A model generated the notes under the pieces. That model was not told the origin of the DNA. It searched no databases and saw nothing but the letters and a program-made list of their open reading frames with translations. Of a stretch of 64,000 bases of DNA, positions 28,690 to 45,534 are shown in pieces. A program made the position numbers and the translations under genes. This DNA comes from an uncultured Clostridia bacterium. GTDB lineage: Bacteria; Bacillota; Clostridia; Christensenellales; CALVMC01. The stretch covers positions 88,708-152,707 of the forward strand of contig CALVMC010000003.1 in NCBI GenBank assembly GCA_944342015.1, read 5' to 3'. The number at the start of each line of letters is the position of its first letter. Position 1 is the stretch's first letter.

Positions 28690-29796
<1,107 letters not shown>

Positions 29797-34144: not shown

Positions 34145-36415
34145 TTACTCGATAATAGTAATGCCGTCTACTCCGTATATCTGAATATTGTCGCCTGTTA
34201 AAGTGAGTACGGCGATTCCGCCTGCGGAAGTAATAGTTCCTTTTTCATTGCATTTCCAAGTTATAATTTTAACTTCTGTTATTGCACCTTTATCGTTCTT
34301 TTCGGTTATGAGATAATCCATAATTTTAACTTTCTCGCCTGTTGAAAGAGTGAATACTCCGCCAAGTCTTATTTCGGGAACATCTGAGTAAGCAGTTGCA
34401 TACTCTCCGAATTCACCTTCGAAACCGACCGGCACGAGTTTTTCAGTATACTGAACATTACCGAAAGTTATATTTTCAATCGATATTGCCATTTTCTGAC
34501 AACCTGCAAAGAGTATAGAAAATATCTTATCGAAGGAATCCTTGGTTGGATCGGAAGCGCCGAACAAGGTATACAAGGCGTCTTTGAAATTCTTATTTAT
34601 TTCGGTATAATCTATTACTCCGTCGTTATCGGTATCGATAAAATTAATATTTCCCCAAACGGTAGTAATGGTTTTAAGAGTATTGAACAGTATATCTTTA
34701 TAATCGGCCTGTTTAGCGTTCTTCTTTTCGTAAGAACGGAAGGCGGCTTCGATTGCATAATCGGTAAGATCGTAAATGTTTATCTCGGCTTTTGTTTGAA
34801 TTTCTCCGTCGGTTGTATAGAATTCGATTATTGCCTCTTTGTTTTCAAGATCTATATCCTTTGCGTTGAAATAAAGGTAAGAGTCAATATTACCTTCCGA
34901 ATCTTTAAGAAGGAATTCGATAAGACCTTTACCGTCTACTCCGCCGTTTTTAAGGTGAGTCATAACGGCGTTTACTATACCTTCCCATAAAACCGCGCAT
35001 TTTTCTTTATACTCAGCGTCGGTCATGCCGTCGGTTTTTACAACTTTATTCAAGGGATCGAAAGCGTATTCCAATCCTGCCATAAGAGCGCCCATGATAT
35101 CTATATCGACTTTTAATTCGTAGGTATAAATCTCTGCCGTATTTATTTCGCTCGAACTGTTGTATCTTTGAACATTGCCGTTCATTGTTATAGACAGCAT
35201 GTTGTTCGAATCTGCCATAGTATCTGAATAAGTTTCTATGGCGCTTGTAATTTTTGACTGTATTTCGGTATCGACGCTTGCGTTGTAAGAAGCCGTTATA
35301 TTGAATTTATCGAAAAGAAGTTTAGCGGAACCTTTTGTGAAATGGAATTTAACTAATTCCTTACAGCTTAAAATTTCATCGTTCACATCGTCTTTTTCCA
35401 TAGGAACGCCTAAAACTATATCGAAAGTTTCCGCACTGTTAATAAATTCCACAGCAAGATTTTGAAGGTCGCTGTCAGAACCGATTTTGGCAGAAAGAAC
35501 GACGTCTACTCCTTTACATGACGGAAGATTATTGTTTGAAAGTGCGTCCCACTGACCTTTCCCGACCTGAATATAAATACCGGCTTCCTGGAAGTATTCT
35601 TTTAAAGAAGAATAAACATTTTTCCCGTCCACGGTAGGCGAAACGAATCCTAAAAGCGCGCCGCCCATGGTTTTAACCATATTCATAACGCTTTCGAGAT
35701 CTATTGTAATTTTAACATCTTTCGAGCCGTCGGAATTAGTTGTTATGTAAGGATTGGCGGTACTGTTCGGGTCTGCTCCGACCGGGTCTTCACAAAAGCC
35801 TGCAATGGCCGCAATTATAACATCGATATCGAGAGAACTGGTATCGTTTGTGCTTTCGGTTGCAGATGCGTCGTTTAATACTAAATTTGCGATAGCGGAA
35901 ACGGACGCAAAATCGATCCTACCCGTTATATAAGGCTGGTCGCCGAAAATTGTACCGGTAAGACTCTGGTCATTTTTAAGAATAAGGAATAAATCGTTCT
36001 CGTTTTCGCCGTCGTTATAATAGGCGCCGAATACAAGTTTGTTATCGGCAAGAGAATTATTTACGATTTCGAACATTAAAGAAGTATTCTGTCCGCCTGT
36101 TATATCGATATTGCCTTTAAGAACAATAGTATAATTTTCCTTTGTTTCGGTTGCGTCCGTAGGATTATTTGTCCAGTTTGCCGAAAAATCGATATTTATT
36201 ACCTTTTCTTTAATTTGAGAAAACCCGTTGGTAAATTCCGTAACGGCAGAACCTAAAATCAAGTTCAATGCTTCCGTTTTTGCGTTTAACCAGCTCGTAG
36301 TTGTTTGATCGTCATCATCGGGATCTTCCGGCGGGTTACAAGCAATTAACGAAAAAGCAAGAACACATACAAGCACTACTGAAATCAGTATTTTCCAAAA
36401 TTTAAACTTTTTCAT
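34145..36415 (-). CDS. Large acidic lipoprotein of unknown function (paralog A)
   Basis: Start reassigned to ATG 36415 behind a GGGAGG RBS; signal MKKFKFWKILISVVLVCVLAFSLIAC (lipobox); promoter TTGCAA-N17-TAAAAT upstream. Confidence 0.85.
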   Translation of the reverse strand: MKKFKFWKILISVVLVCVLAFSLIACNPPEDPDDDDQTTTSWLNAKTEALNLILGSAVTEFTNGFSQIKEKVINIDFSANWTNNPTDATETKENYTIVLKGNIDITGGQNTSLMFEIVNNSLADNKLVFGAYYNDGENENDLFLILKNDQSLTGTIFGDQPYITGRIDFASVSAIANLVLNDASATESTNDTSSLDIDVIIAAIAGFCEDPVGADPNSTANPYITTNSDGSKDVKITIDLESVMNMVKTMGGALLGFVSPTVDGKNVYSSLKEYFQEAGIYIQVGKGQWDALSNNNLPSCKGVDVVLSAKIGSDSDLQNLAVEFINSAETFDIVLGVPMEKDDVNDEILSCKELVKFHFTKGSAKLLFDKFNITASYNASVDTEIQSKITSAIETYSDTMADSNNMLSITMNGNVQRYNSSSEINTAEIYTYELKVDIDIMGALMAGLEYAFDPLNKVVKTDGMTDAEYKEKCAVLWEGIVNAVMTHLKNGGVDGKGLIEFLLKDSEGNIDSYLYFNAKDIDLENKEAIIEFYTTDGEIQTKAEINIYDLTDYAIEAAFRSYEKKNAKQADYKDILFNTLKTITTVWGNINFIDTDNDGVIDYTEINKNFKDALYTLFGASDPTKDSFDKIFSILFAGCQKMAISIENITFGNVQYTEKLVPVGFEGEFGEYATAYSDVPEIRLGGVFTLSTGEKVKIMDYLITEKNDKGAITEVKIITWKCNEKGTITSAGGIAVLTLTGDNIQIYGVDGITIIE

Positions 36416-36774
36416 AATTCCTCCCATGTCAAGGTTGTTATTGATATCTAAAATTTTATAAAAAATTTATTTATTAAATTTTCTACTAACTAATTTTAGC
36501 ACAACTGAATGTTCATTGCAATACTTTTTATTTTTTTTATTAATATATATATGGAAAATATTGTAAATAGAATATCAAATACACTAAGTAATTTATTGCT
36601 AGTTTTAAGACTTTTAAATTTATTTTTAAAATAATTGAAATTTTTTTATAATTAAATAAGATTTTAATTTTAATTTAAAAGTTTTAACATTAAAAATTAA
36701 AAAGGTTAAAATCGGCACCTTTTTATTAAAATTTTAATTTGAATATGCCGAAATTATTTTTTAACATAACATAA

Positions 36775-36821: not shown

Positions 36822-39005
36822 TTAAGCGATAGGCTTGCCGTTAACATCTTTGATTGTGATATCAGTACCTGTGATATCGAATACAACGCATCCTCCGTTA
36901 AGTACTACATTACCTTCTGCATCGCAGGACCAAGCGATAACTTTGGCTTTTGTAATGTTGCTTGAAGCGTCTCTTTGAGTTACGAGATAATCCAATACTT
37001 TAAAGGTTTTGCTGTCAACTTCAACTTTTGCACCTACTTGAATTTCAGATACTGCAAAAGAATCTGTTGAAAGTTCTACTCCGCCCGTAAATCCGCCAAG
37101 GTCGGAAGGAGTGGCCATGAACTGAACATTTCCGAATTTGAATTCTTCGATAGAAACAGACATTTTATCTTTACCGCCGAAGATTGTATCGATAACTACA
37201 TCGATAGAAGCCTTTGTTTCTGCTGTCGGATTGAATATAGCATATAATCCGTCAACGAAAGAACTGTAAACTTCGGTATATTCTACAACGCCGTCATCGT
37301 TGCTGTCAACAAAGTTAACATTGCCCCAAAGACCTGTTACTGCCTTTAATACATTGAATATAACTACTTTATAATCCAAAGTTGTAGTAGCTTTGTCTTC
37401 GCTTGCAAAAGCAGCGGTTGCAGCATATTCGATTACATCGTAAAGGTTCAAAGTCGATTTAACTTTTTGTCCTTCTGCGGTTGTTGTGTATAAGGTGATT
37501 ATCGCTTCTTTATTTGCGGTATTAATATCGGCTGCGTCAAAACAGAAATAAGTGTTGGTAGTAGTTCCGTTACCCATCCAGTATTCTATTTTAGCTTTTC
37601 CGTTGCCGTTATCGTAAAGATAATCGATAACTTCGTCAACTATTTCCATAGTGAGTTCATAGCAAGCTGCATCGTATTGAGCGTCGGTCATGTTGCCTTT
37701 AACGACTTTGTTAGCCATTCCGTATTCGAGACCTGCCCAAACAGCACCTATAACATCGGCATCGATATTGAATTTGTATTCGTAAGTATCGGTAGCGTCA
37801 GCATAATTGCCGTCATATCTCTTAACTTCACCCGAGAAGCTGAATGCAAGCGCATTGCTAGAAGATATATCGCCGAACTCTGTGATTTTGCCGTCGATAG
37901 TACTTGCAATATTAGCGTCTTTCGAAGTTCCTACATTAAGGGTGTCAACAGAAAGTTTTGCGCTGCCAGCGGGGAAATTAAAGTTAAATAATTCTTTGTA
38001 AGTATTTCCGGAAGGTACTCCGAGAACGAAATCGAAAGCAGTGCTGTTTTTGAATTCAACTGCTAAATTCTGTAAATTGCTGCTTGCGTCGATTTTAGCC
38101 GAAAGAACAACATCTACTCCTGTGCATGCAGGAAGATTGTTGTGGGAAAGAGGCTGCCATTCGCCGCCGACTTTGGTGTAAAGTCCTACGGCTTCAAAAT
38201 ATTCGCTTAAAGACTGGTAATCGTTGGTTTTACCGTCGCTGCTCGGTGAAATGAATCCTATGAGCGCACCGCCCATGGTTTTAACCATATTCATAACGCT
38301 TTCAAGGTCGATTGTAATGCTTACGGTTTTAGAACCGTCAGAGTTTGCAGTAATATAAGGATTAACGCCTTCGGTAGGTTCGCCTGCTCCTACGGGATCT
38401 TCACAGAAACCTGCAACAGCCGCAATGATAACATCGAGAGAGCTCATATCGATTGTGCTTTCGGTAGCCGAATTATCGGTGAAAAGGTTAACGATAGAAG
38501 CAAAAGACGGGAAAGATATTCTTCCTGTAAGATAATCTTCACTTCCGAAAATGTTTCCGGTAAGCTTGGGATCGTTTTTGAGTTTAAGGAAGATATCGGA
38601 ACCGTCTTTGTAATAAGCACCGAATACGAGTTTGTTTTCGGTAAGGGAATTGTTTACAACTTCAACCATTAAAGCGGTATCTTCTCCACCCGTGATATCG
38701 ATATTACCTTTAACGCTGAAAGTAAAGTTCTCTGTTGCCGCACTTGCGCCGTTCGGAGTATTTGTCCATGAAGCAGCAAGGTCAAGGCTTATGACCTTGG
38801 TTGTAATGTCGCCGAATCCGCTGACCTTAGTTGCAGCAGAACCTAAAATCAAGTTCAATGCTTCCGTTTTTGCGTTTAACCAGCTCGTAGTTTTTTGATC
38901 GTCATCACCGGGTTCTTCCGGCTGGTTACAAGCAATTAACGAAAAAGCAAGAACACATACTAACAATACTGAAATCAGTATTTTCCAAAATTTAAACTTT
39001 TTCAT
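36822..39005 (-). CDS. Large acidic lipoprotein of unknown function (paralog B)
   Basis: Start reassigned to ATG 39005 behind GGGAGG; lipobox LIAC; collinear similarity to paralog A over the full length. Confidence 0.85.
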   Translation of the reverse strand: MKKFKFWKILISVLLVCVLAFSLIACNQPEEPGDDDQKTTSWLNAKTEALNLILGSAATKVSGFGDITTKVISLDLAASWTNTPNGASAATENFTFSVKGNIDITGGEDTALMVEVVNNSLTENKLVFGAYYKDGSDIFLKLKNDPKLTGNIFGSEDYLTGRISFPSFASIVNLFTDNSATESTIDMSSLDVIIAAVAGFCEDPVGAGEPTEGVNPYITANSDGSKTVSITIDLESVMNMVKTMGGALIGFISPSSDGKTNDYQSLSEYFEAVGLYTKVGGEWQPLSHNNLPACTGVDVVLSAKIDASSNLQNLAVEFKNSTAFDFVLGVPSGNTYKELFNFNFPAGSAKLSVDTLNVGTSKDANIASTIDGKITEFGDISSSNALAFSFSGEVKRYDGNYADATDTYEYKFNIDADVIGAVWAGLEYGMANKVVKGNMTDAQYDAACYELTMEIVDEVIDYLYDNGNGKAKIEYWMGNGTTTNTYFCFDAADINTANKEAIITLYTTTAEGQKVKSTLNLYDVIEYAATAAFASEDKATTTLDYKVVIFNVLKAVTGLWGNVNFVDSNDDGVVEYTEVYSSFVDGLYAIFNPTAETKASIDVVIDTIFGGKDKMSVSIEEFKFGNVQFMATPSDLGGFTGGVELSTDSFAVSEIQVGAKVEVDSKTFKVLDYLVTQRDASSNITKAKVIAWSCDAEGNVVLNGGCVVFDITGTDITIKDVNGKPIA

Positions 39006-39037
39006 AATTCCTCCCATTTGTAATTTAATACGAATAA

Positions 39038-39066
39038 ATTTTAACATATATGTTTTTTACTTGCAA
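39038..39066 (-). promoter_or_regulatory. Sigma-A promoter of lipoprotein B
   Basis: TTGCAA-N17-TAAAAT with TGn; identical hexamers precede paralog A. Confidence 0.65.
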
Positions 39067-39412: not shown

Positions 39413-40918
39413 TTAAAGAGAAAGGGTTTTCCCGGTTTTTGCGTCCTGATACATAATCCAGTAACCTTCTTTTTCGGGCTGATTTTTGTCGGCGGGAAAC
39501 CAGCTGCAAAGCGAGGAAATATCGGTAGGCGGAATTACCGATTTGTGTGCCGGTATTCCGTAACAGATATAGTCGGGATTTTTACCCACTATTCCTACAA
39601 CATAGTACTCTTTGTCCTTAAACTCGATTTTTACCCATTTGGAATCGGGAATATTTTTTTCGAGAATTTCTTCCTTCGGGTAGCAAACGAACAGTTCGTC
39701 TATCTGAGGCTTTACGGCGTCATAAAAGGTTTTATCCGAACCGATAAGTCCGCTTTTTTTGGCTTTCAAAAAAATATCGGCGTTTGCTTCTATGCTCTCT
39801 GCCACGCTTAATTCGTTATCCTTTTTTTGGTTGTCATCCATATCACTGTTCCCTCCGCTGTCTTTACTGAAAAAATTTTCCTGTCTTGTCATAGGCTCGG
39901 CTTTAAAAAACTCGTTGACCGCATTTCTGTATTCTTTGTCCTTTGCGTTTATAAGATAGGCTCTTTCGAGTTCGATTTTTTTTATTATGTTGGTAATTTT
40001 TAAATCGGCGTCAAAATATTCGTTATGACAATATGCATTGCAGTTATTTGAAAAATCTTTTTCCCCGCATTCCGTATAGGCTTGATTTTCCTTATTTTGA
40101 TTTTCTTTATAGTCAGAAGTATTCGATTCATTGTTCTCGGGTATTTTTTCAGTTTTGTTTGCAGCTTCTTCGCTTATTCTGTCTTGGAATCCGCTTTCCT
40201 GAAACCCGATTTCATTTTCCTTAATATCACTGTCGTATTTATCACTGCCATTATTAAAGGTAAAGTCTGCTGTCGGACTTTCCTTTTCCTCTTCAAATTC
40301 CTCTTTTAATTGCTTTTGAAATACGCCGTCCTCTTCCCTTTCCCTATCGGTATTAATTTCCTTATCTGTATTAAGTTCATTATCGGTATTAAATTCATTA
40401 TCTGTATTAAGTTCCCTATCTGTATTAAGTTCCCTATCGGTATTAAGTTCCCTATCGGTATTAAGTTCCCTGTTTTCAGCAAGGTATGTTGATTCTTTAC
40501 TTTCAAAAGGAATATCCGTGCCGACTTCGGTTTCATTTTCCGTGATAGTTTTTTCAAACGAAAAAGACTCTGTCTGCTCTTTCGGGAAAATTGCACTTTG
40601 ACTTTTAAGATAAAGTTCGGTTATTTTTGCCGTTCTGTACGGATTTCCTTTTCTGCCTAAACAACCGTAATATACGGGACTTGTGCTAGAATCGAATAAA
40701 ACGCATTCCAGACCTTCTTTTAAAATATCTTCTTTAACGGATATTTGTTTGTTTTTGTCGGAAGAAAAAATCCGCCCGTCGTTTATTACGGAAAAACTTT
40801 CATAATCTTTATCGCAGTAAACGGTGAGCCTGCCGTTAAAACTCCTGATTTTTCCCGTTCCGCATTCTTTTCCGTCCTTAACGGTAAAAAATTTTATGTT
40901 TTTTTCTGTAAGCTTCAT
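39413..40918 (-). CDS. Hypothetical acidic protein with hexapeptide repeats, likely sporulation-associated
   Basis: 501-aa ORF with GAGGTG RBS, disordered acidic middle and compact C-terminal domain; sigma-E-like TCATATC-N14-CATAAATT upstream. Confidence 0.7.
   Translation of the reverse strand: MKLTEKNIKFFTVKDGKECGTGKIRSFNGRLTVYCDKDYESFSVINDGRIFSSDKNKQISVKEDILKEGLECVLFDSSTSPVYYGCLGRKGNPYRTAKITELYLKSQSAIFPKEQTESFSFEKTITENETEVGTDIPFESKESTYLAENRELNTDRELNTDRELNTDRELNTDNEFNTDNELNTDKEINTDREREEDGVFQKQLKEEFEEEKESPTADFTFNNGSDKYDSDIKENEIGFQESGFQDRISEEAANKTEKIPENNESNTSDYKENQNKENQAYTECGEKDFSNNCNAYCHNEYFDADLKITNIIKKIELERAYLINAKDKEYRNAVNEFFKAEPMTRQENFFSKDSGGNSDMDDNQKKDNELSVAESIEANADIFLKAKKSGLIGSDKTFYDAVKPQIDELFVCYPKEEILEKNIPDSKWVKIEFKDKEYYVVGIVGKNPDYICYGIPAHKSVIPPTDISSLCSWFPADKNQPEKEGYWIMYQDAKTGKTLSL
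40340..40471. repeat. In-frame 18-bp tandem repeat, about 7 units (RELNTD)
   Basis: Unit TTCCCTATCGGTATTAAG and variants. Confidence 0.9.
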
Positions 40919-41125
40919 AAAACACCTCTTTTAAATTTATGCTTTTAAAAACCGTGATATGAGAAAATCGTAAAGGTAAAAAGTTGTGTTTAGTTTTTTT
41001 AATAAATACTTAAATTGTAAAAAGCATATCTTAAAATGTTTATTCTTTTGCGTTTTAAGAAAATTTTTAGGAATCATTATTAAAATACTTGAATTGTTTA
41101 TTACATTGTGTTAATATATTTATAA

Positions 41126-41303
41126 AGAACCGACGGGACGGAAAATCCTACCCGAAGGAATCTTTAAACTTTTAAGCGACTTAAAGTTTTGCTTAATTGA
41201 AATTAAACATACCGAGTCTAAGGACGGTCCGAGGACAAAGAGAGTTTAAATCAAAGAATAATTTTGCTTTGTTTTATTCCTTTGTCTTTGACAAAGGTTT
41301 TTT
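41126..41303 (+). promoter_or_regulatory. Structured leader/attenuator upstream of the hydrogenase maturation operon
   Basis: Several hairpins ending in terminator CCTTTGTC-TTT-GACAAAGG-T6 just before the RBS; GACAAAG at 41234-41240 could form an antiterminator. Confidence 0.6.
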
Positions 41304-41319
41304 AATATAAAGGTGGAAT

Positions 41320-41565
41320 ATGGAAAACCGCATAGCAGTAATAGGAATAATAGTGGAAAATCAGGATATGACAACTAAACTCAACGAAATTCTTCACGAA
41401 TACGGAAGGTATATAATCGGAAGAATGGGCGTACCATTCCGTGAAAAAGGAATAAACATAATCAGCATAGCGATAAACGCACCGCACGAGATAATCAGCG
41501 CACTGTCGGGAAAAATCGGAAGACTTGACGGAGTCAGCGCAACGACAGCCTATTCAAAAGTATGA
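41320..41565 (+). CDS. TM1266-family iron-only hydrogenase system putative regulator
   Basis: RIAVIGIIVEN...LNEILHEY...IIGRMGVP...ISALSGKIGRL; precedes hydE. Confidence 0.9.
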   Translation: MENRIAVIGIIVENQDMTTKLNEILHEYGRYIIGRMGVPFREKGINIISIAINAPHEIISALSGKIGRLDGVSATTAYSKV

Positions 41566-42614
41566 AAAAGGATTTTATAGAAAGGATTATAGAAAATACC
41601 CAAAAGGGTATTGTTCCGAAAGCCGAAGATTTAAAATTAATTTTCGGCTGCGACGATAAGGCTTTAAGTCCTTTATATGAAAGGGCGAGAGAAACTGCAT
41701 TTTCTGTATATTCCGACAATGTTTTTGTAAGGGGGCTTATTGAAATAACTTCCTTTTGCAAAAACGACTGTTTATACTGCGGACTCAGACGCTCGAACAA
41801 GGAAGCGCAAAGATACCGCATTAAAGAAGAAGATATATTTGAAATCTGTAAAATCGGTTACGAAAAAGGGTTCAGAACCTTTGTTCTGCAAGGCGGCGAA
41901 GACGGTTATTTCGGCGACGAAATACTCGTTCCCCTGATAGAAAAAATAAAATCCGCTTTTAAAAATGTTGCGGTGACGCTTTCCTTGGGGGAAAGAACAA
42001 AGGAAAGTTATAAAAATCTATTTAATGCGGGAGCCGACAGATATCTTTTAAGGCACGAAACGGCAGACAGTAAACATTATAAAAAACTGCACCCGAAAGA
42101 TATGAGTTACGAAAACAGAAAACGGTGCCTTTACGACTTAAAGGAAATAGGATATCAGACGGGCTGCGGACTTATGGTAGGCTCGCCCTATCAGACCGAA
42201 GAAAGTCTGTATAAAGACCTTGTTTTCATAAAAGAGTTCTATCCCGAAATGGTGGGAATAGGACCTTTTATTCCCCACAAAAAGACGCCCTTTAAGGACT
42301 TTGAAAAAGGTTCGGTTAAAAAAACCCTTATAATGCTTGCCCTTGTCAGAATATTGGTACCGAAAGCACTTCTTCCTGCGACAACCGCTTTAAAGACGGC
42401 GGACGGTAACGGGCTTTTAAAAGGAATTCTTTCGGGCGCAAATGTTATAATGCCTAATTTAACGCCCGACGAGTACAGAACAAAATATGAAATATACGAC
42501 GGAAAAACTACAAGCGATAAAAAATGCATCAAAGAATATCTTGAAAATATCGATAACGAACTTAATAAAATAGGACGGCGGCTTAATATGAGCCGTGGCG
42601 ATTATAAAAAATAA
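41562..42614 (+). CDS. hydE: [FeFe]-hydrogenase H-cluster radical SAM maturase HydE
   Basis: RGLIE...CKNDCLYCGLR, LQGGED, YLLRHET, GIGPFIPH, PATTAL, GANVIMPN. Confidence 0.93.
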   Translation: MKKDFIERIIENTQKGIVPKAEDLKLIFGCDDKALSPLYERARETAFSVYSDNVFVRGLIEITSFCKNDCLYCGLRRSNKEAQRYRIKEEDIFEICKIGYEKGFRTFVLQGGEDGYFGDEILVPLIEKIKSAFKNVAVTLSLGERTKESYKNLFNAGADRYLLRHETADSKHYKKLHPKDMSYENRKRCLYDLKEIGYQTGCGLMVGSPYQTEESLYKDLVFIKEFYPEMVGIGPFIPHKKTPFKDFEKGSVKKTLIMLALVRILVPKALLPATTALKTADGNGLLKGILSGANVIMPNLTPDEYRTKYEIYDGKTTSDKKCIKEYLENIDNELNKIGRRLNMSRGDYKK

Positions 42615-42659
42615 AATCCTGAAAGGGAAGATTATAAGCCTTGAAGGCGGGAGGGATAT

Positions 42660-44078
42660 ATGTATAATGTAAAATCAATGAAAGCGGAAGAGTTTATCGA
42701 CCATAACGAGATAGAAGAAACCCTTTCTTTTGCAGAAGCAAACAAGAACAATTTAAAACTTATCGACAGCCTTATTGAAAAAGCAAAAGAGAGAAAGGGA
42801 CTCAGTCACAGAGAAGCGTCCGTTCTTCTTGCCTGCGAAAACAAGGAAAAACTCGAAGAAATCTATGCTTTGGCAAGACAGATAAAAGAAGATTTTTACG
42901 GGAACAGAATTGTAATGTTTGCCCCCCTTTATCTTTCCAACTACTGTGTAAACGGCTGCGTATACTGTCCCTATCACGGACAGAACAAACATATACCGAG
43001 AAAGAAACTTACTCAGGAAGATATCGTAAAAGAAGTAACAGCCCTTCAAGATATGGGACATAAAAGACTTGCGATAGAATCGGGAGAAGACCCTGTACAT
43101 AATCCCATAGAATACATACTCGAAAGTATAAAGACAATATATTCGATAAAACATAAAAACGGCGCTATACGAAGGGTAAATGTAAATATTGCGGCAACCA
43201 CGGTGGAAAATTATAAAAAACTGAAAGACGCAGGAATAGGAACATATATACTTTTTCAGGAAACATATCACAAGGAAAGTTACGAAAAACTGCACCCGTG
43301 GGGACCTAAGCACGATTACTGCTATCATACCGAAGCTATGGACAGAGCGATGCAAGGCGGGATAGACGATGTGGGACTCGGGGTTCTTTTCGGACTGGAA
43401 CTTTACAAGTACGAATTTGCAGGACTTTTAATGCACGCAGAACATTTGGAAGCGGTATTCGGAGTAGGTCCGCACACGATAAGCGTGCCGAGAATAAAGA
43501 GAGCGGACGATATTAATCCTACCGATTTCGATAACGGAATAGATGACGAAACCTTCGCTAAAATCTGCGCTCTTATAAGAATAAGCGTTCCTTATACGGG
43601 TATGATAATTTCAACGAGAGAAAGCAAGGCGGTGCGGGAAAAGGTACTGAGCCTTGGAATATCGCAGATAAGCGGCGGTTCGAGAACAAGCGTTGGCGGA
43701 TACTATGAAGAGGAAGAGGAAGACGAAAGCTCGGAACAGTTCGATGTAAGCGACAAAAGAACCCTTGACGAAGTGGTCTGCTGGCTTATGGAACTTGGAT
43801 ATATTCCGAGTTTCTGCACGGCTTGTTACAGAGAAGGCAGAACGGGCGACAGATTTATGACATTGCTTAAAAACAAGCAGATACTTAACTGCTGCCATCC
43901 TAACGCTCTTATGACTCTTAAAGAATTTTTGTGCGACTACGCTTCGGAAAAGACGGTAAAAATCGGAAACGAACTTATAAAGCGGGAACTTGAAAAAATT
44001 CCAAACGAAACAGTAAAAGCAAAAGCCAAGGAAAATCTGGAAAAAATCGAGAAAGGTATCCGTGATTTCAGATTCTGA
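42660..44078 (+). CDS. hydG: [FeFe]-hydrogenase H-cluster radical SAM maturase HydG
   Basis: FAPLYLSNYCVNGCVYC, FQETYH, GPHTISVPR, C-terminal SFCTACYR...CHPNA. Confidence 0.96.
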   Translation: MYNVKSMKAEEFIDHNEIEETLSFAEANKNNLKLIDSLIEKAKERKGLSHREASVLLACENKEKLEEIYALARQIKEDFYGNRIVMFAPLYLSNYCVNGCVYCPYHGQNKHIPRKKLTQEDIVKEVTALQDMGHKRLAIESGEDPVHNPIEYILESIKTIYSIKHKNGAIRRVNVNIAATTVENYKKLKDAGIGTYILFQETYHKESYEKLHPWGPKHDYCYHTEAMDRAMQGGIDDVGLGVLFGLELYKYEFAGLLMHAEHLEAVFGVGPHTISVPRIKRADDINPTDFDNGIDDETFAKICALIRISVPYTGMIISTRESKAVREKVLSLGISQISGGSRTSVGGYYEEEEEDESSEQFDVSDKRTLDEVVCWLMELGYIPSFCTACYREGRTGDRFMTLLKNKQILNCCHPNALMTLKEFLCDYASEKTVKIGNELIKRELEKIPNETVKAKAKENLEKIEKGIRDFRF

Positions 44079-44331
44079 AATCGGTTTTAAGGTTTTTTTA
44101 AAAATATAAAAATATTTTAAATTTTTTATAATATTATAAGAAACCGTTTTAAAATTTTTTCGGAATTAAACATTTCGGTTTTATTTAAGCCGATAATCGC
44201 CGTAAAATTCAACAAAACGGAACGCCATATTCTCTACAAGCGAGTTTTATTTAATCCGAAAATAGCCGTAAAAATTTAAGTACCGAAAAATCGTACTTGC
44301 TTAATTAAATAAATTATAAGGTGGTAACAAT

Positions 44332-45534
44332 ATGAGTTTAAACGACACGCCGTTAGCGGAAAGAGTGCATATAGCCTTTTTCGGAATGAGAAATGCCGGA
44401 AAATCATCACTTGTAAACGCAGTTACAAGGCAGAATGTTTCTATTGTTTCTGAAAAAAAGGGAACGACGACAGACCCTGTTTACAAGAATATGGAACTTC
44501 TGCCGTTAGGTCCCGTTACGATTATAGATACGCCGGGCTTTGACGACGACGAAGAAACGCTCGGAAAACTCAGAGTGGAAAAAGCCGTTCATATTTTAAG
44601 AAAAACCGATATAGCCGTTCTCGTAAAAGACTCCTCTCTGCCCTTTTCCGAAACCGAAAAAACACTTGTTTCGGAATTTGAAAAATTAAATGTACCCTAC
44701 ATAATAGCACAGAACAAGTGCGACCTTATACAAAATATTAACAGCCAAAACGGTACCGTTTTTGTCAGCGCAAAAACCGGTAAAGGAATAACCGAATTAA
44801 AAGAAAAAATAGCAAGTTTAAACTTGTTGAAAACACAGTCTCGAAAACTGCTCGATGGCATAGCAAATAAAGGCGACACTTTAATTCTTGTAGTTCCGAT
44901 AGACAAAGCCGCTCCGAAAGGAAGACTTATTCTTCCCCAACAGCAGGTAATAAGGGAAGCTCTCGACTCAGGCTGCGTTGCGGTTATAACACGGGACGAA
45001 GAACTCGAACAGACTCTCAAAGCAATAAAAAATCCTTCCTTTGTAATATGCGACAGTCAGGTTTTTTCATATACCGCTTCCGTAGTACCCGAAAGCATAC
45101 CGCTTACTTCCTTTTCTATACTTATGGCACGATATAAAGGATTTTTAGATACGGCGCTGAAAGGGGTAACAAAAATTTCAAAGCTTACCGAAAAAAGCAA
45201 GGTTGTAATTTCCGAAGGCTGTACCCATCACCGTCAATGCGGCGATATAGGAACGGTTAAGATACCTGCGCTTATTGAAAAATTCACAAAGGTTCGCCCG
45301 AAGTACAAATTTACTTCGGGACAGGATTTTTCAGAAGAAATTATAAAAGACGCCGACCTTGTTATACACTGCGGCGGTTGTATGCTTAACGAAAGAGAAA
45401 TGCAGTTCAGACAGAATATCGCTTTAAACTGCGGCGTTTCTTTCACCAATTACGGAACGGCTATTTCCTATATGTCGGGAATACTCAAAAGAAGTATAAA
45501 GGATATACCTGAATATAGAAATTTCGATATATAG
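44332..45534 (+). CDS. hydF: [FeFe]-hydrogenase maturation GTPase HydF
   Basis: GMRNAGKSS, GTTTDPV, DTPG, NKCD, PKGRLILPQ, EGCTHH, HCGGC, TNYG. Confidence 0.96.
   Translation: MSLNDTPLAERVHIAFFGMRNAGKSSLVNAVTRQNVSIVSEKKGTTTDPVYKNMELLPLGPVTIIDTPGFDDDEETLGKLRVEKAVHILRKTDIAVLVKDSSLPFSETEKTLVSEFEKLNVPYIIAQNKCDLIQNINSQNGTVFVSAKTGKGITELKEKIASLNLLKTQSRKLLDGIANKGDTLILVVPIDKAAPKGRLILPQQQVIREALDSGCVAVITRDEELEQTLKAIKNPSFVICDSQVFSYTASVVPESIPLTSFSILMARYKGFLDTALKGVTKISKLTEKSKVVISEGCTHHRQCGDIGTVKIPALIEKFTKVRPKYKFTSGQDFSEEIIKDADLVIHCGGCMLNEREMQFRQNIALNCGVSFTNYGTAISYMSGILKRSIKDIPEYRNFDI

Follow-up and report, generated by a model that had tools for sequence, protein, structure and literature searches.

The DNA analyzed here is a stretch of 64,000 nucleotides (nt) from an uncultured Clostridia bacterium, hereafter the window, which carries the maturation genes of an [FeFe]-hydrogenase on its forward (+) strand. 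The H-cluster of [FeFe]-hydrogenases is assembled by HydE, HydG, and HydF; these hydrogenases have a central place in the hydrogen metabolism of anaerobes in the gut and the environment, and bio-hydrogen engineering targets them. The first gene of the operon encodes an 81-amino-acid protein of the ubiquitous TM1266 family (41320..41565; PF21699, 1.2e-30; TIGR03959, 111 bits), which is annotated only as a putative regulator. It is followed by hydE (41562..42614; TIGR03956, 481 bits), hydG (42660..44078; TIGR03955, 927 bits), and hydF (44332..45534; TIGR03918, 505 bits), all on the + strand, so the original prediction, which had read these genes as an [FeFe]-hydrogenase maturation operon, was right about the operon. 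The gene upstream (39413-40918) lies on the opposite strand and is divergent, and the terminator in front of the operon (41279..41303, +) therefore ends no other gene. The subject of this report is the untranslated leader between that gene and the operon. On balance, we regard the leader (41125-41303) as probably a Rho-independent attenuator of TM1266-hydE-hydG(-hydF) and a divergent member, with two hairpins, of an undescribed family of leaders found in many Clostridia in front of the same genes.

A putative sigma-A promoter (41089..41117, +) precedes the leader. Its -35 box (TTGAAT, 41089-41094) and -10 box (TAATAT, 41112-41117) are 17 nt apart, and the spacer ends in TGn (extended -10). These boxes and their spacing had been predicted and are present, but one base away from the implied position. 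The promoter matches 8 of 12 consensus positions and was absent from the list of our pattern scan because the cut-off of that scan was 9/12; at this cut-off, there was no promoter-like site at all on the + strand of 40800-41700. Transcription would start at approximately 41124-41126, leaving an untranslated leader of ~180 nt between promoter and terminator, and the first hairpin (H1) begins 12 nt after the end of the -10 box. The GC content of the leader is 0.27-0.42 versus 0.17-0.25 for the upstream spacer. The leader had been described as GC-richer than its flanks, which is correct with regard to the upstream spacer but not the downstream coding DNA. The fold of a 191-nt leader sequence had a z-score of -3.7, and none of 200 shuffled sequences was equally stable. 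A leader peptide was considered and rejected: the leader lacks an ATG, and its + strand lacks an open reading frame (ORF) of at least 50 amino acids.

The intrinsic terminator consists of an 8-base-pair (bp) stem with a 3-nt loop (41279-41297) and a run of six T residues (41298-41303). It had been predicted to be strong, and it was the sole terminator-like site detected by the pattern scan in 40800-41700. It is also identical in a close relative, locus L001, of which the TM1266 protein is 99% identical and the leader is 93.7% identical over 205 nt, the differences falling in four clusters. One terminator-like site was observed in the scanned region versus 0.6 expected in shuffled sequences; therefore, the terminator count alone is not significant. 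From the T-run to the ATG (41320) there are only 16 nt, which include a ribosome-binding site (AAGGTGG, 41310-41316, +, as read from the sequence) within 7 nt of the T-run. As the original prediction presupposed, the scan found no independent promoter on the + strand downstream of the terminator. The perfect TTGACA hexamer at 41288-41293, in the terminator loop and 3' arm, was examined as a -35 box and rejected: -10-like hexamers occur only 10-12 nt away, which is too close for a normal promoter.

A complete promoter-to-terminator cassette with such an unusually stable fold could also produce an independent small RNA of ~180 nt, or a stable RNA released from the 5' untranslated region, that acts on targets of its own; the hyd genes would then be expressed only by incidental read-through. 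This explanation seems very improbable to us, since the operon has no separate promoter, the ribosome-binding site follows the T-run by no more than 7 nt, and the same layout is placed directly on TM1266 in 42 of 43 loci of the leader family described below. Moreover, the antiterminator covariation in that family makes sense only under regulated read-through.

The original prediction had further proposed that GACAAAG (41234-41240) pairs with the 5' arm of the terminator to form a mutually exclusive antiterminator. In the leader, this heptamer is the core of an antiterminator 5' strand (41227..41258, +) that overlaps the 3' strand of a second hairpin (H2), and it lies within 41228-41248, the leader's best complement of the terminator 5' arm (-14.2 kcal/mol). 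In the minimum-energy fold, 41227-41258 pairs with 41264-41292, and this fold reaches -45.3 kcal/mol versus -40.6 kcal/mol when the terminator is forced. The proposed pairing is thus reproduced by thermodynamic prediction, and the heptamer is identical in the window and L001. Two words are duplicated in the leader, GACAAAG and CTTTGT, each of which occurs twice. A near-copy of the terminator 5' arm (GCTTTGTTTT; 41267..41276, +) pairs with 41232-41246 in the folded prefix ending at 41278, and it is a possible decoy partner for GACAAAG.

If the terminator were merely leaky and constitutive, it would damp or insulate the operon and sense nothing, and the alternative pairings would be incidental in AT-rich DNA. 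The terminator count, which does not exceed chance, and the many alternative pairings that AT-rich leaders offer fit this explanation. We nevertheless judge it to be improbable: the duplication of the two words is organized, the antiterminator state is favored over the terminator state by 4.7 kcal/mol, and the tail of the family hairpin covaries with its terminator, as shown below. A G+C-containing hairpin with a U-tract thus lies between the promoter and the first gene, together with a mutually exclusive antiterminator whose stability, by thermodynamic prediction only, is at least that of the terminator state. We conclude that the leader is a genuine attenuator-type element.

Upstream of the terminator, four hairpins had been proposed, and comparison with L001 separated them. 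H1 (41130..41158, +) consists of 2 bp, a GA/AA internal loop, 4 bp, a 2x2 loop, 3 bp, and an AAA loop; it was recovered in every fold computed and is identical in L001. The 3' tail of H1 (41154..41161, +) can form eight pairs with 41276-41283 and is a possible second antiterminator. This duplex has -8.1 kcal/mol, a value equalled by 0.75% of 2000 tail shuffles, and the fold forced to the H1-tail pairing has -36.9 kcal/mol, weaker than the alternatives. The pairing of the middle hairpin (41172..41196, +) is uncertain: AAACTTT/AAAGTTT had been proposed, whereas folds prefer TTAAGCGA/TTGCTTAA, the competing TTAAGC/GCTTAA being favored, and L001 is identical throughout 41172-41196. The other two hairpins did not survive the comparison. 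TTAATT-GA-AATTAA is broken by substitutions in L001, and ACC..GTC-TAAG-GAC-GGT has -3.7 kcal/mol in the window versus +7.8 kcal/mol in L001.

H2 (41214..41238, +) appears to be the better candidate and would replace these two. Its stems are 41216-19/41233-36 and 41222-24/41228-30, and its layout is GA, 4 bp, AA, 3 bp, 3-nt loop, GA, 4 bp, AA, that is, a double purine-loop geometry. When 41208-41244 of the window is folded, H2 is the structure of lowest energy (-7.3 kcal/mol). Despite five substitutions, H2 is kept in L001 (-6.1 kcal/mol), where the optimum (-6.7 kcal/mol) is a near variant. It is also present in the fold of the co-transcriptional prefix ending at 41245.

We searched the window with Rfam 15. 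At the gathering thresholds, the whole window gave two tRNAs only, and no family matched the leader, T-box, SAM, TPP, cobalamin, NiCo, yybP-ykoY, and c-di-GMP included, in keeping with the original failure to assign it to a known class. When 40920-41340 was searched at E <= 10, the best match was L10_leader (RF00557; 30.5 bits versus a gathering threshold of 44; E = 0.0031), which aligned 41194-41312 with short blocks common to both, UACCGA and CCGAGG, followed by the terminator. A homologue of the L10 leader, or another site for L10(L12)4, is nonetheless extremely improbable, even with the best sub-threshold score. The 28-nt internal hairpin of the model is shrunk to 12 nt, and the gene context is unrelated, the downstream genes being TM1266-family and then hydE instead of rplJ. 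Much of the score comes from the terminator, because other terminator-bearing families score 12-18 bits here. We therefore rejected membership in RF00557 on account of the sub-threshold score, the reduced hairpin, and the wrong gene context.

The same database was applied to orthologous loci. At the gathering thresholds, no family fell within any TM1266 leader among 40 loci, and at E <= 10, no family was found for the leaders of two loci, L014 and L002, RF00557 included. Two known riboregulators were located just upstream of TM1266 leaders on the opposite (-) strand, an FMN riboswitch at L008 (2132-2247) and a T-box at L020 (2049-2237); both belong to genes transcribed divergently at those loci.

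For comparison of orthologous leaders, we used species-representative genomes and took the best 80 of 582 confirmed TM1266 protein matches, a set that leaves out the TM1266 relatives P0013, P0016, and P0022 (75-79% protein identity). Motif searches covered these TM1266 loci and the window. A loose script was applied to 80 upstream regions, here those of the window and 79 loci (L004 being too short), and in 52 of them it found a hairpin followed by a T-run no more than 160 nt from the TM1266 start. A hairpin that we designate motif B recurs in these leaders. Its outer stem of 2-3 bp leads through a GA/RA internal loop to a 4-bp stem, and an RA/GA internal loop separates the latter from 3 bp capped by a variable loop; CUGAC in the 5' strand and G-RAAG in the 3' strand are near-invariant. 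A regular expression for motif B matched 34 of the 80 loci. In the alignment of these 34 loci, 91.2% of cells are paired, and the covariation score is 0.403 versus 0.209 in shuffled alignments (reached by 0 of 500) and at most 0.191 with slid partners. Pair 14-36 is AU in 25 loci, GC in eight, and other in one, and pair 15-35 is CG in 19, UA in 13, and UG in two; the regular expression had fixed the letter classes at these columns, not their pairing. In a MAFFT alignment of a subtype, 11 family members with 3-bp stems, the helices were out of register.

Covariance models were built from 34 sequences (R1), 43 sequences (R2), and eight sequences of a second hairpin, type A, described below (R3). 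R1 recovered seven loci on which it had not been trained (L049, L080, L051, L060, L058, L008, and L059), all on the + strand and upstream of TM1266, which brought motif B to 41 of 80 loci at E <= 0.017; L023 was a weak eighth match (E = 9.3). With L068 and L032 added by eye, the family comprises 43 motif loci. As judged by record titles, its carriers belong to Oscillospiraceae, Lachnospiraceae, Peptococcaceae, Eubacteriaceae, Syntrophomonadaceae, Christensenellales, and others; culturable species with the canonical motif include Sporobacter termitidis DSM 10068 (L014), Lutispora saccharofermentans (L018), and Mobilitalea sibirica DSM 26468 (L047). The TM1266 gene comes directly after the motif in every motif locus, and a terminator is present downstream of the motif in 42 of 43. 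Six further R1 matches on the minus strand, ~1.1-1.2 kb downstream near the 3' end of hydE (L056 3712-3753, L038 1530-1571, L059 1932-1973, L053 3631-3672, L036 3643-3684, and L027 3656-3697), are the reverse complement of the region encoding the HydE peptide GANVVMPNLSP..VRKKY and were discarded as false, because they reflect a coincidence with the HydE coding sequence.

The 3' tail of motif B (RAAAG plus 14 nt) pairs with the 5' arm of its own terminator at a mean of -11.4 kcal/mol, compared with -8.4 kcal/mol (standard deviation 3.9) for cross-locus pairs, and none of 5000 permutations reached the own-pair mean; kinship among the loci inflates this permutation statistic as well as the shuffle statistics above, which counts against our interpretation. 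The tail pairs better with its own terminator arm and is therefore an antiterminator strand overlapping the outer stem and loop of the motif. Promoters with at least 8/12 consensus positions were found in 39 of the 43 motif loci. The -10 box ends 8-13 nt before motif B in 18 of these 39 and 50-58 nt before it in nine; the motif often starts ~10-13 nt after a sigma-A -10 box. Most loci with the longer distance belong to the eight in which a type A hairpin is inserted between promoter and motif B (L014 2346-2382, L018 2334-2371, L027 2293-2329, L028 2304-2340, L036 2333-2374, L047 2213-2250, L062 101-139, and L072 584-621). In type A, a GCU/AGC outer stem is followed by an RA/AA loop and a G-C-closed stem of 4 bp, and beyond a 1x1 mismatch comes a further stem, AAGA/UCUU; in the type A alignment, 96.6% of cells are paired, and none of 500 shuffles reached the covariation score. 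The succession of type A and motif B points to a tandem-site architecture.

Motif B matched nothing in Rfam 15, and searches of Creative Commons-licensed PMC and bioRxiv papers did not find it, though it may sit in supplements of motif papers under another name. These searches, and passages of PMC5651825, yielded no report of a leader or riboswitch of TM1266 or hydE/G/F or of any role of RNA in their control, and nothing turned up on bacterial regulation of the HydE/HydG/HydF maturases.

Other types of leader occur among the orthologous loci. At L002, the TM1266 locus closest to the window after L001 (76% protein identity), the upstream gap measures 573 nt (1270-1842) and contains a terminator ending ~38 nt before the start; L002 lacks motif B and may represent a third leader type. 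Separately, L061, L074, and L075, all without motif B, have in common a conserved block of ~230 nt (77-79% identity) between about -280 and -50 relative to the start of TM1266. Neither L061 nor L074 has an Rfam match, and the block may represent a small gene or a further type of leader.

The orthologous leaders thus possess a conserved, covarying structure on a terminator/antiterminator platform, as the original prediction would require, but the copy in the window fails all three covariance models. Its resemblance to the family lies in the design. In the window as in the family, a promoter and a structured element are followed by a terminator before TM1266, and the 3' strand of the element is complementary to the terminator arm. 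Gene context, promoter spacing, the geometry of a hairpin with four purine dinucleotides, and the overlap with the antiterminator are common to both, the first element after the promoter of the window being H1, not H2. We searched for this geometry with a descriptor derived from the family consensus, in which the letters of the stems were left free (GA, 4 bp, RA, 3 bp, loop of 3-9 nt, 3 bp, GA, 4 bp, RA). Its single match in 128 kb (the 64-kb window, both strands) was H2 at 41214-41238, whereas 40 first-order shuffles gave a mean of 0.1 matches. In the 80 loci (765 kb, both strands), the descriptor gave 20 matches, 18 of which were in TM1266 leaders, and 18 of the 43 family members pass it. 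A second descriptor, in which the outer stem was kept and the inner loop left free, is passed by 23 of the 43 family members; H1 is one of its four matches in 128 kb, compared with a shuffle mean of 1.6.

Several observations weigh against our interpretation of the window leader, in addition to the kinship effect noted above. Neither R1 nor R2, run with filters off, gave a leader match at E <= 10 in the whole window, nor did R3. Restricted to the leader, R1 found nothing meaningful, and R2 on the + strand gave 3.3 bits for H1 and 3.7 bits for the inner part of H2. Where 39 of 43 family members have CUGAC, H2 has CCGAG; moreover, H2 is closed by G-C instead of C-G and has no outer stem. The descriptor test is partly post hoc, because the outer-stem requirement was dropped after H2 had failed it, and L001 fails the descriptor by having UA in place of RA. 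In nhmmer and blastn-short searches of the 80 loci with the window leader, L001 was the sole match, so that comparison of the window version covers this one close relative. Finally, in 37 of the 80 loci, a conserved TM1266 protein is encoded and the 2.5 kb upstream contain no detectable motif; therefore, any link between the protein and the RNA is not obligatory. The window leader also differs from the family in its G+C-rich inner stem and in the 3' side of H2, which reads C-AAAG versus G-RAAG with a C/A mismatch at the place of the outer stem. An R2 match in the gap between hydE and hydG (42611-42660; 10.8 bits, E = 2.2) was rejected as sequence without the motif.

These failures would be expected if the element were a lineage-specific attenuator that has only position and general design in common with the family, the likeness of H1 and H2 being convergent or due to chance. 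The failure of R1, R2, and R3, the restriction of sequence matches to L001, the altered near-invariant nucleotides, and the presence of yet another terminator-bearing leader without motif or Rfam match in L002 all speak for such an origin. We consider it possible though unlikely, given that H2 is the only descriptor match in 128 kb where 0.1 would be expected, that the descriptor is specific elsewhere (18 of 20 matches in TM1266 leaders), and that the distance from promoter to hairpin and the overlap of hairpin and antiterminator are the same as in the family. We infer that H2 is homologous to the family motif. In our preferred interpretation, the window carries a divergent two-hairpin version that has kept the loop purines, helix lengths, and antiterminator overlap, and its comparison with canonical motif B would reveal which features can change.

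The model of the TM1266-like protein had a predicted local distance difference test score of 95. Foldseek gave template modeling scores of 0.93 to 2NZC (Thermotoga maritima TM1266) and 0.87 to the C-terminal domain of Helicobacter pylori NikR, and a sequence search of the PDB returned 2NZC only. The protein is thus predicted to have the NikR C-terminal/ACT-like regulatory-domain fold. It shares ~21% identity with NikR and, unlike NikR, has no ribbon-helix-helix DNA-binding domain; it contains no cysteine, and neither a Pfam search nor Foldseek revealed a recognizable nucleic-acid-binding domain. The protein is highly conserved in the other 79 loci, yet the window and L001 deviate at several positions that are nearly fixed elsewhere: F40 replaces Y (79/79 others), H56 replaces Q (72/79, H in none), N53 replaces D (77/79), T75 replaces K (78/79), and E57 replaces D (69/79). 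The deviant protein and the deviant RNA therefore occur in one lineage, a single observation that would fit protein-RNA co-evolution and equally a generally fast-evolving lineage. Within the family, the variants CUAAC (L049, L080), CUGAA (L008), and CUGAU (L068) share no obvious protein substitutions.

We propose the following mechanism. During transcription, H1 would fold first and H2 next. Together with the following AAAG, the 3' strand of H2 (GGAC) would form the core of the antiterminator and pair with the 5' arm of the terminator. The antiterminator state is more stable on paper, and the default would therefore be read-through. An effector that locks the purine-loop hairpin or hairpins would sequester the antiterminator strand, so that the terminator forms and the operon is turned off. 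The leader would thus be an OFF switch, as expected for feedback control. The original prediction had named Fe, SAM, Tyr, Cys, and the TM1266 protein as candidate effectors. We slightly favor the TM1266-like protein encoded immediately downstream, which would then regulate its own operon and perhaps carry a ligand, over a metabolite: the protein seems to us to have a little less than an even chance, a small molecule or ion linked to H-cluster synthesis nearly as much, and any other effector clearly less. The case for the protein is weak.

Protein-mediated transcription attenuation is represented in Bacillota by PyrR (pyr leaders), HutP (hut leader), and TRAP (trp), and PyrR binding favors termination. 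In these systems, binding selects terminator or antiterminator. As in them, the RNA element here is short and flanked by a sigma-A promoter and an intrinsic terminator, and the candidate regulator is encoded in or near the operon; the direction proposed for the window leader is that of PyrR. On the other hand, a motif with two purine-rich 2x2 internal loops 4 bp apart matches no PyrR, HutP, or TRAP site, and the PyrR model of Rfam gave 17.9 bits on the window leader versus a threshold of 54. The preQ1-I, SAM, and FMN OFF riboswitches likewise have a covarying aptamer-like hairpin whose 3' strand is common to the antiterminator, with a terminator before the first gene, and their conserved nucleotides are similarly concentrated in internal loops. 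In contrast to these classes, neither the window leader nor the family leaders match any Rfam 15 family. With its length of ~35 nt and near two-fold symmetry, motif B is equally compatible with a protein site and a ligand pocket.

The covarying leader and its terminator/antiterminator switch, present in 41 of the 80 species sampled, offer a concrete, testable control point of [FeFe]-hydrogenase maturation. The family may be a new orphan riboswitch class that reports the status of H-cluster precursors, or the missing RNA target of the TM1266 protein. A more specific version of the latter, which we regard as speculative and rather doubtful, is that the TM1266-family protein is a ligand-sensing RNA-binding attenuation protein that binds the double purine-loop hairpin at the 5' end of the mRNA encoding it and thereby causes transcription to stop ahead of hydE and hydG. 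If so, the supply of an H-cluster precursor or metal would be coupled to maturase synthesis, and a regulatory mechanism would have been described for the first time for bacterial [FeFe]-hydrogenase maturation. The lineage of the window would then hold a co-evolved pair, with Y40F, Q56H, D53N, and K75T in the protein and the change from CUGAC to CCGAG and the flipped closing pair in the RNA. We know of no RNA binding by the NikR C-terminal/ACT-like fold, and to our knowledge this would be its first such role.

The spacer between hydG and hydF (44079-44331) is 253 nt long and very AT-rich, with repeated (A)GCCGTAAAA(A)TT-like words, and hydF may have its own promoter and be transcribed apart from the leader-controlled genes. 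Upstream of the leader, three consecutive ORFs on the minus strand (34145-36427, 36822-39047, and 39413-40918; 760, 741, and 501 amino acids) are divergent from the hyd operon and have no match in Pfam or NCBIfam. Farther upstream, a minus-strand gene (28690-29796) combines collagen triple-helix repeats with a BclA C-terminal domain and resembles an exosporium protein.

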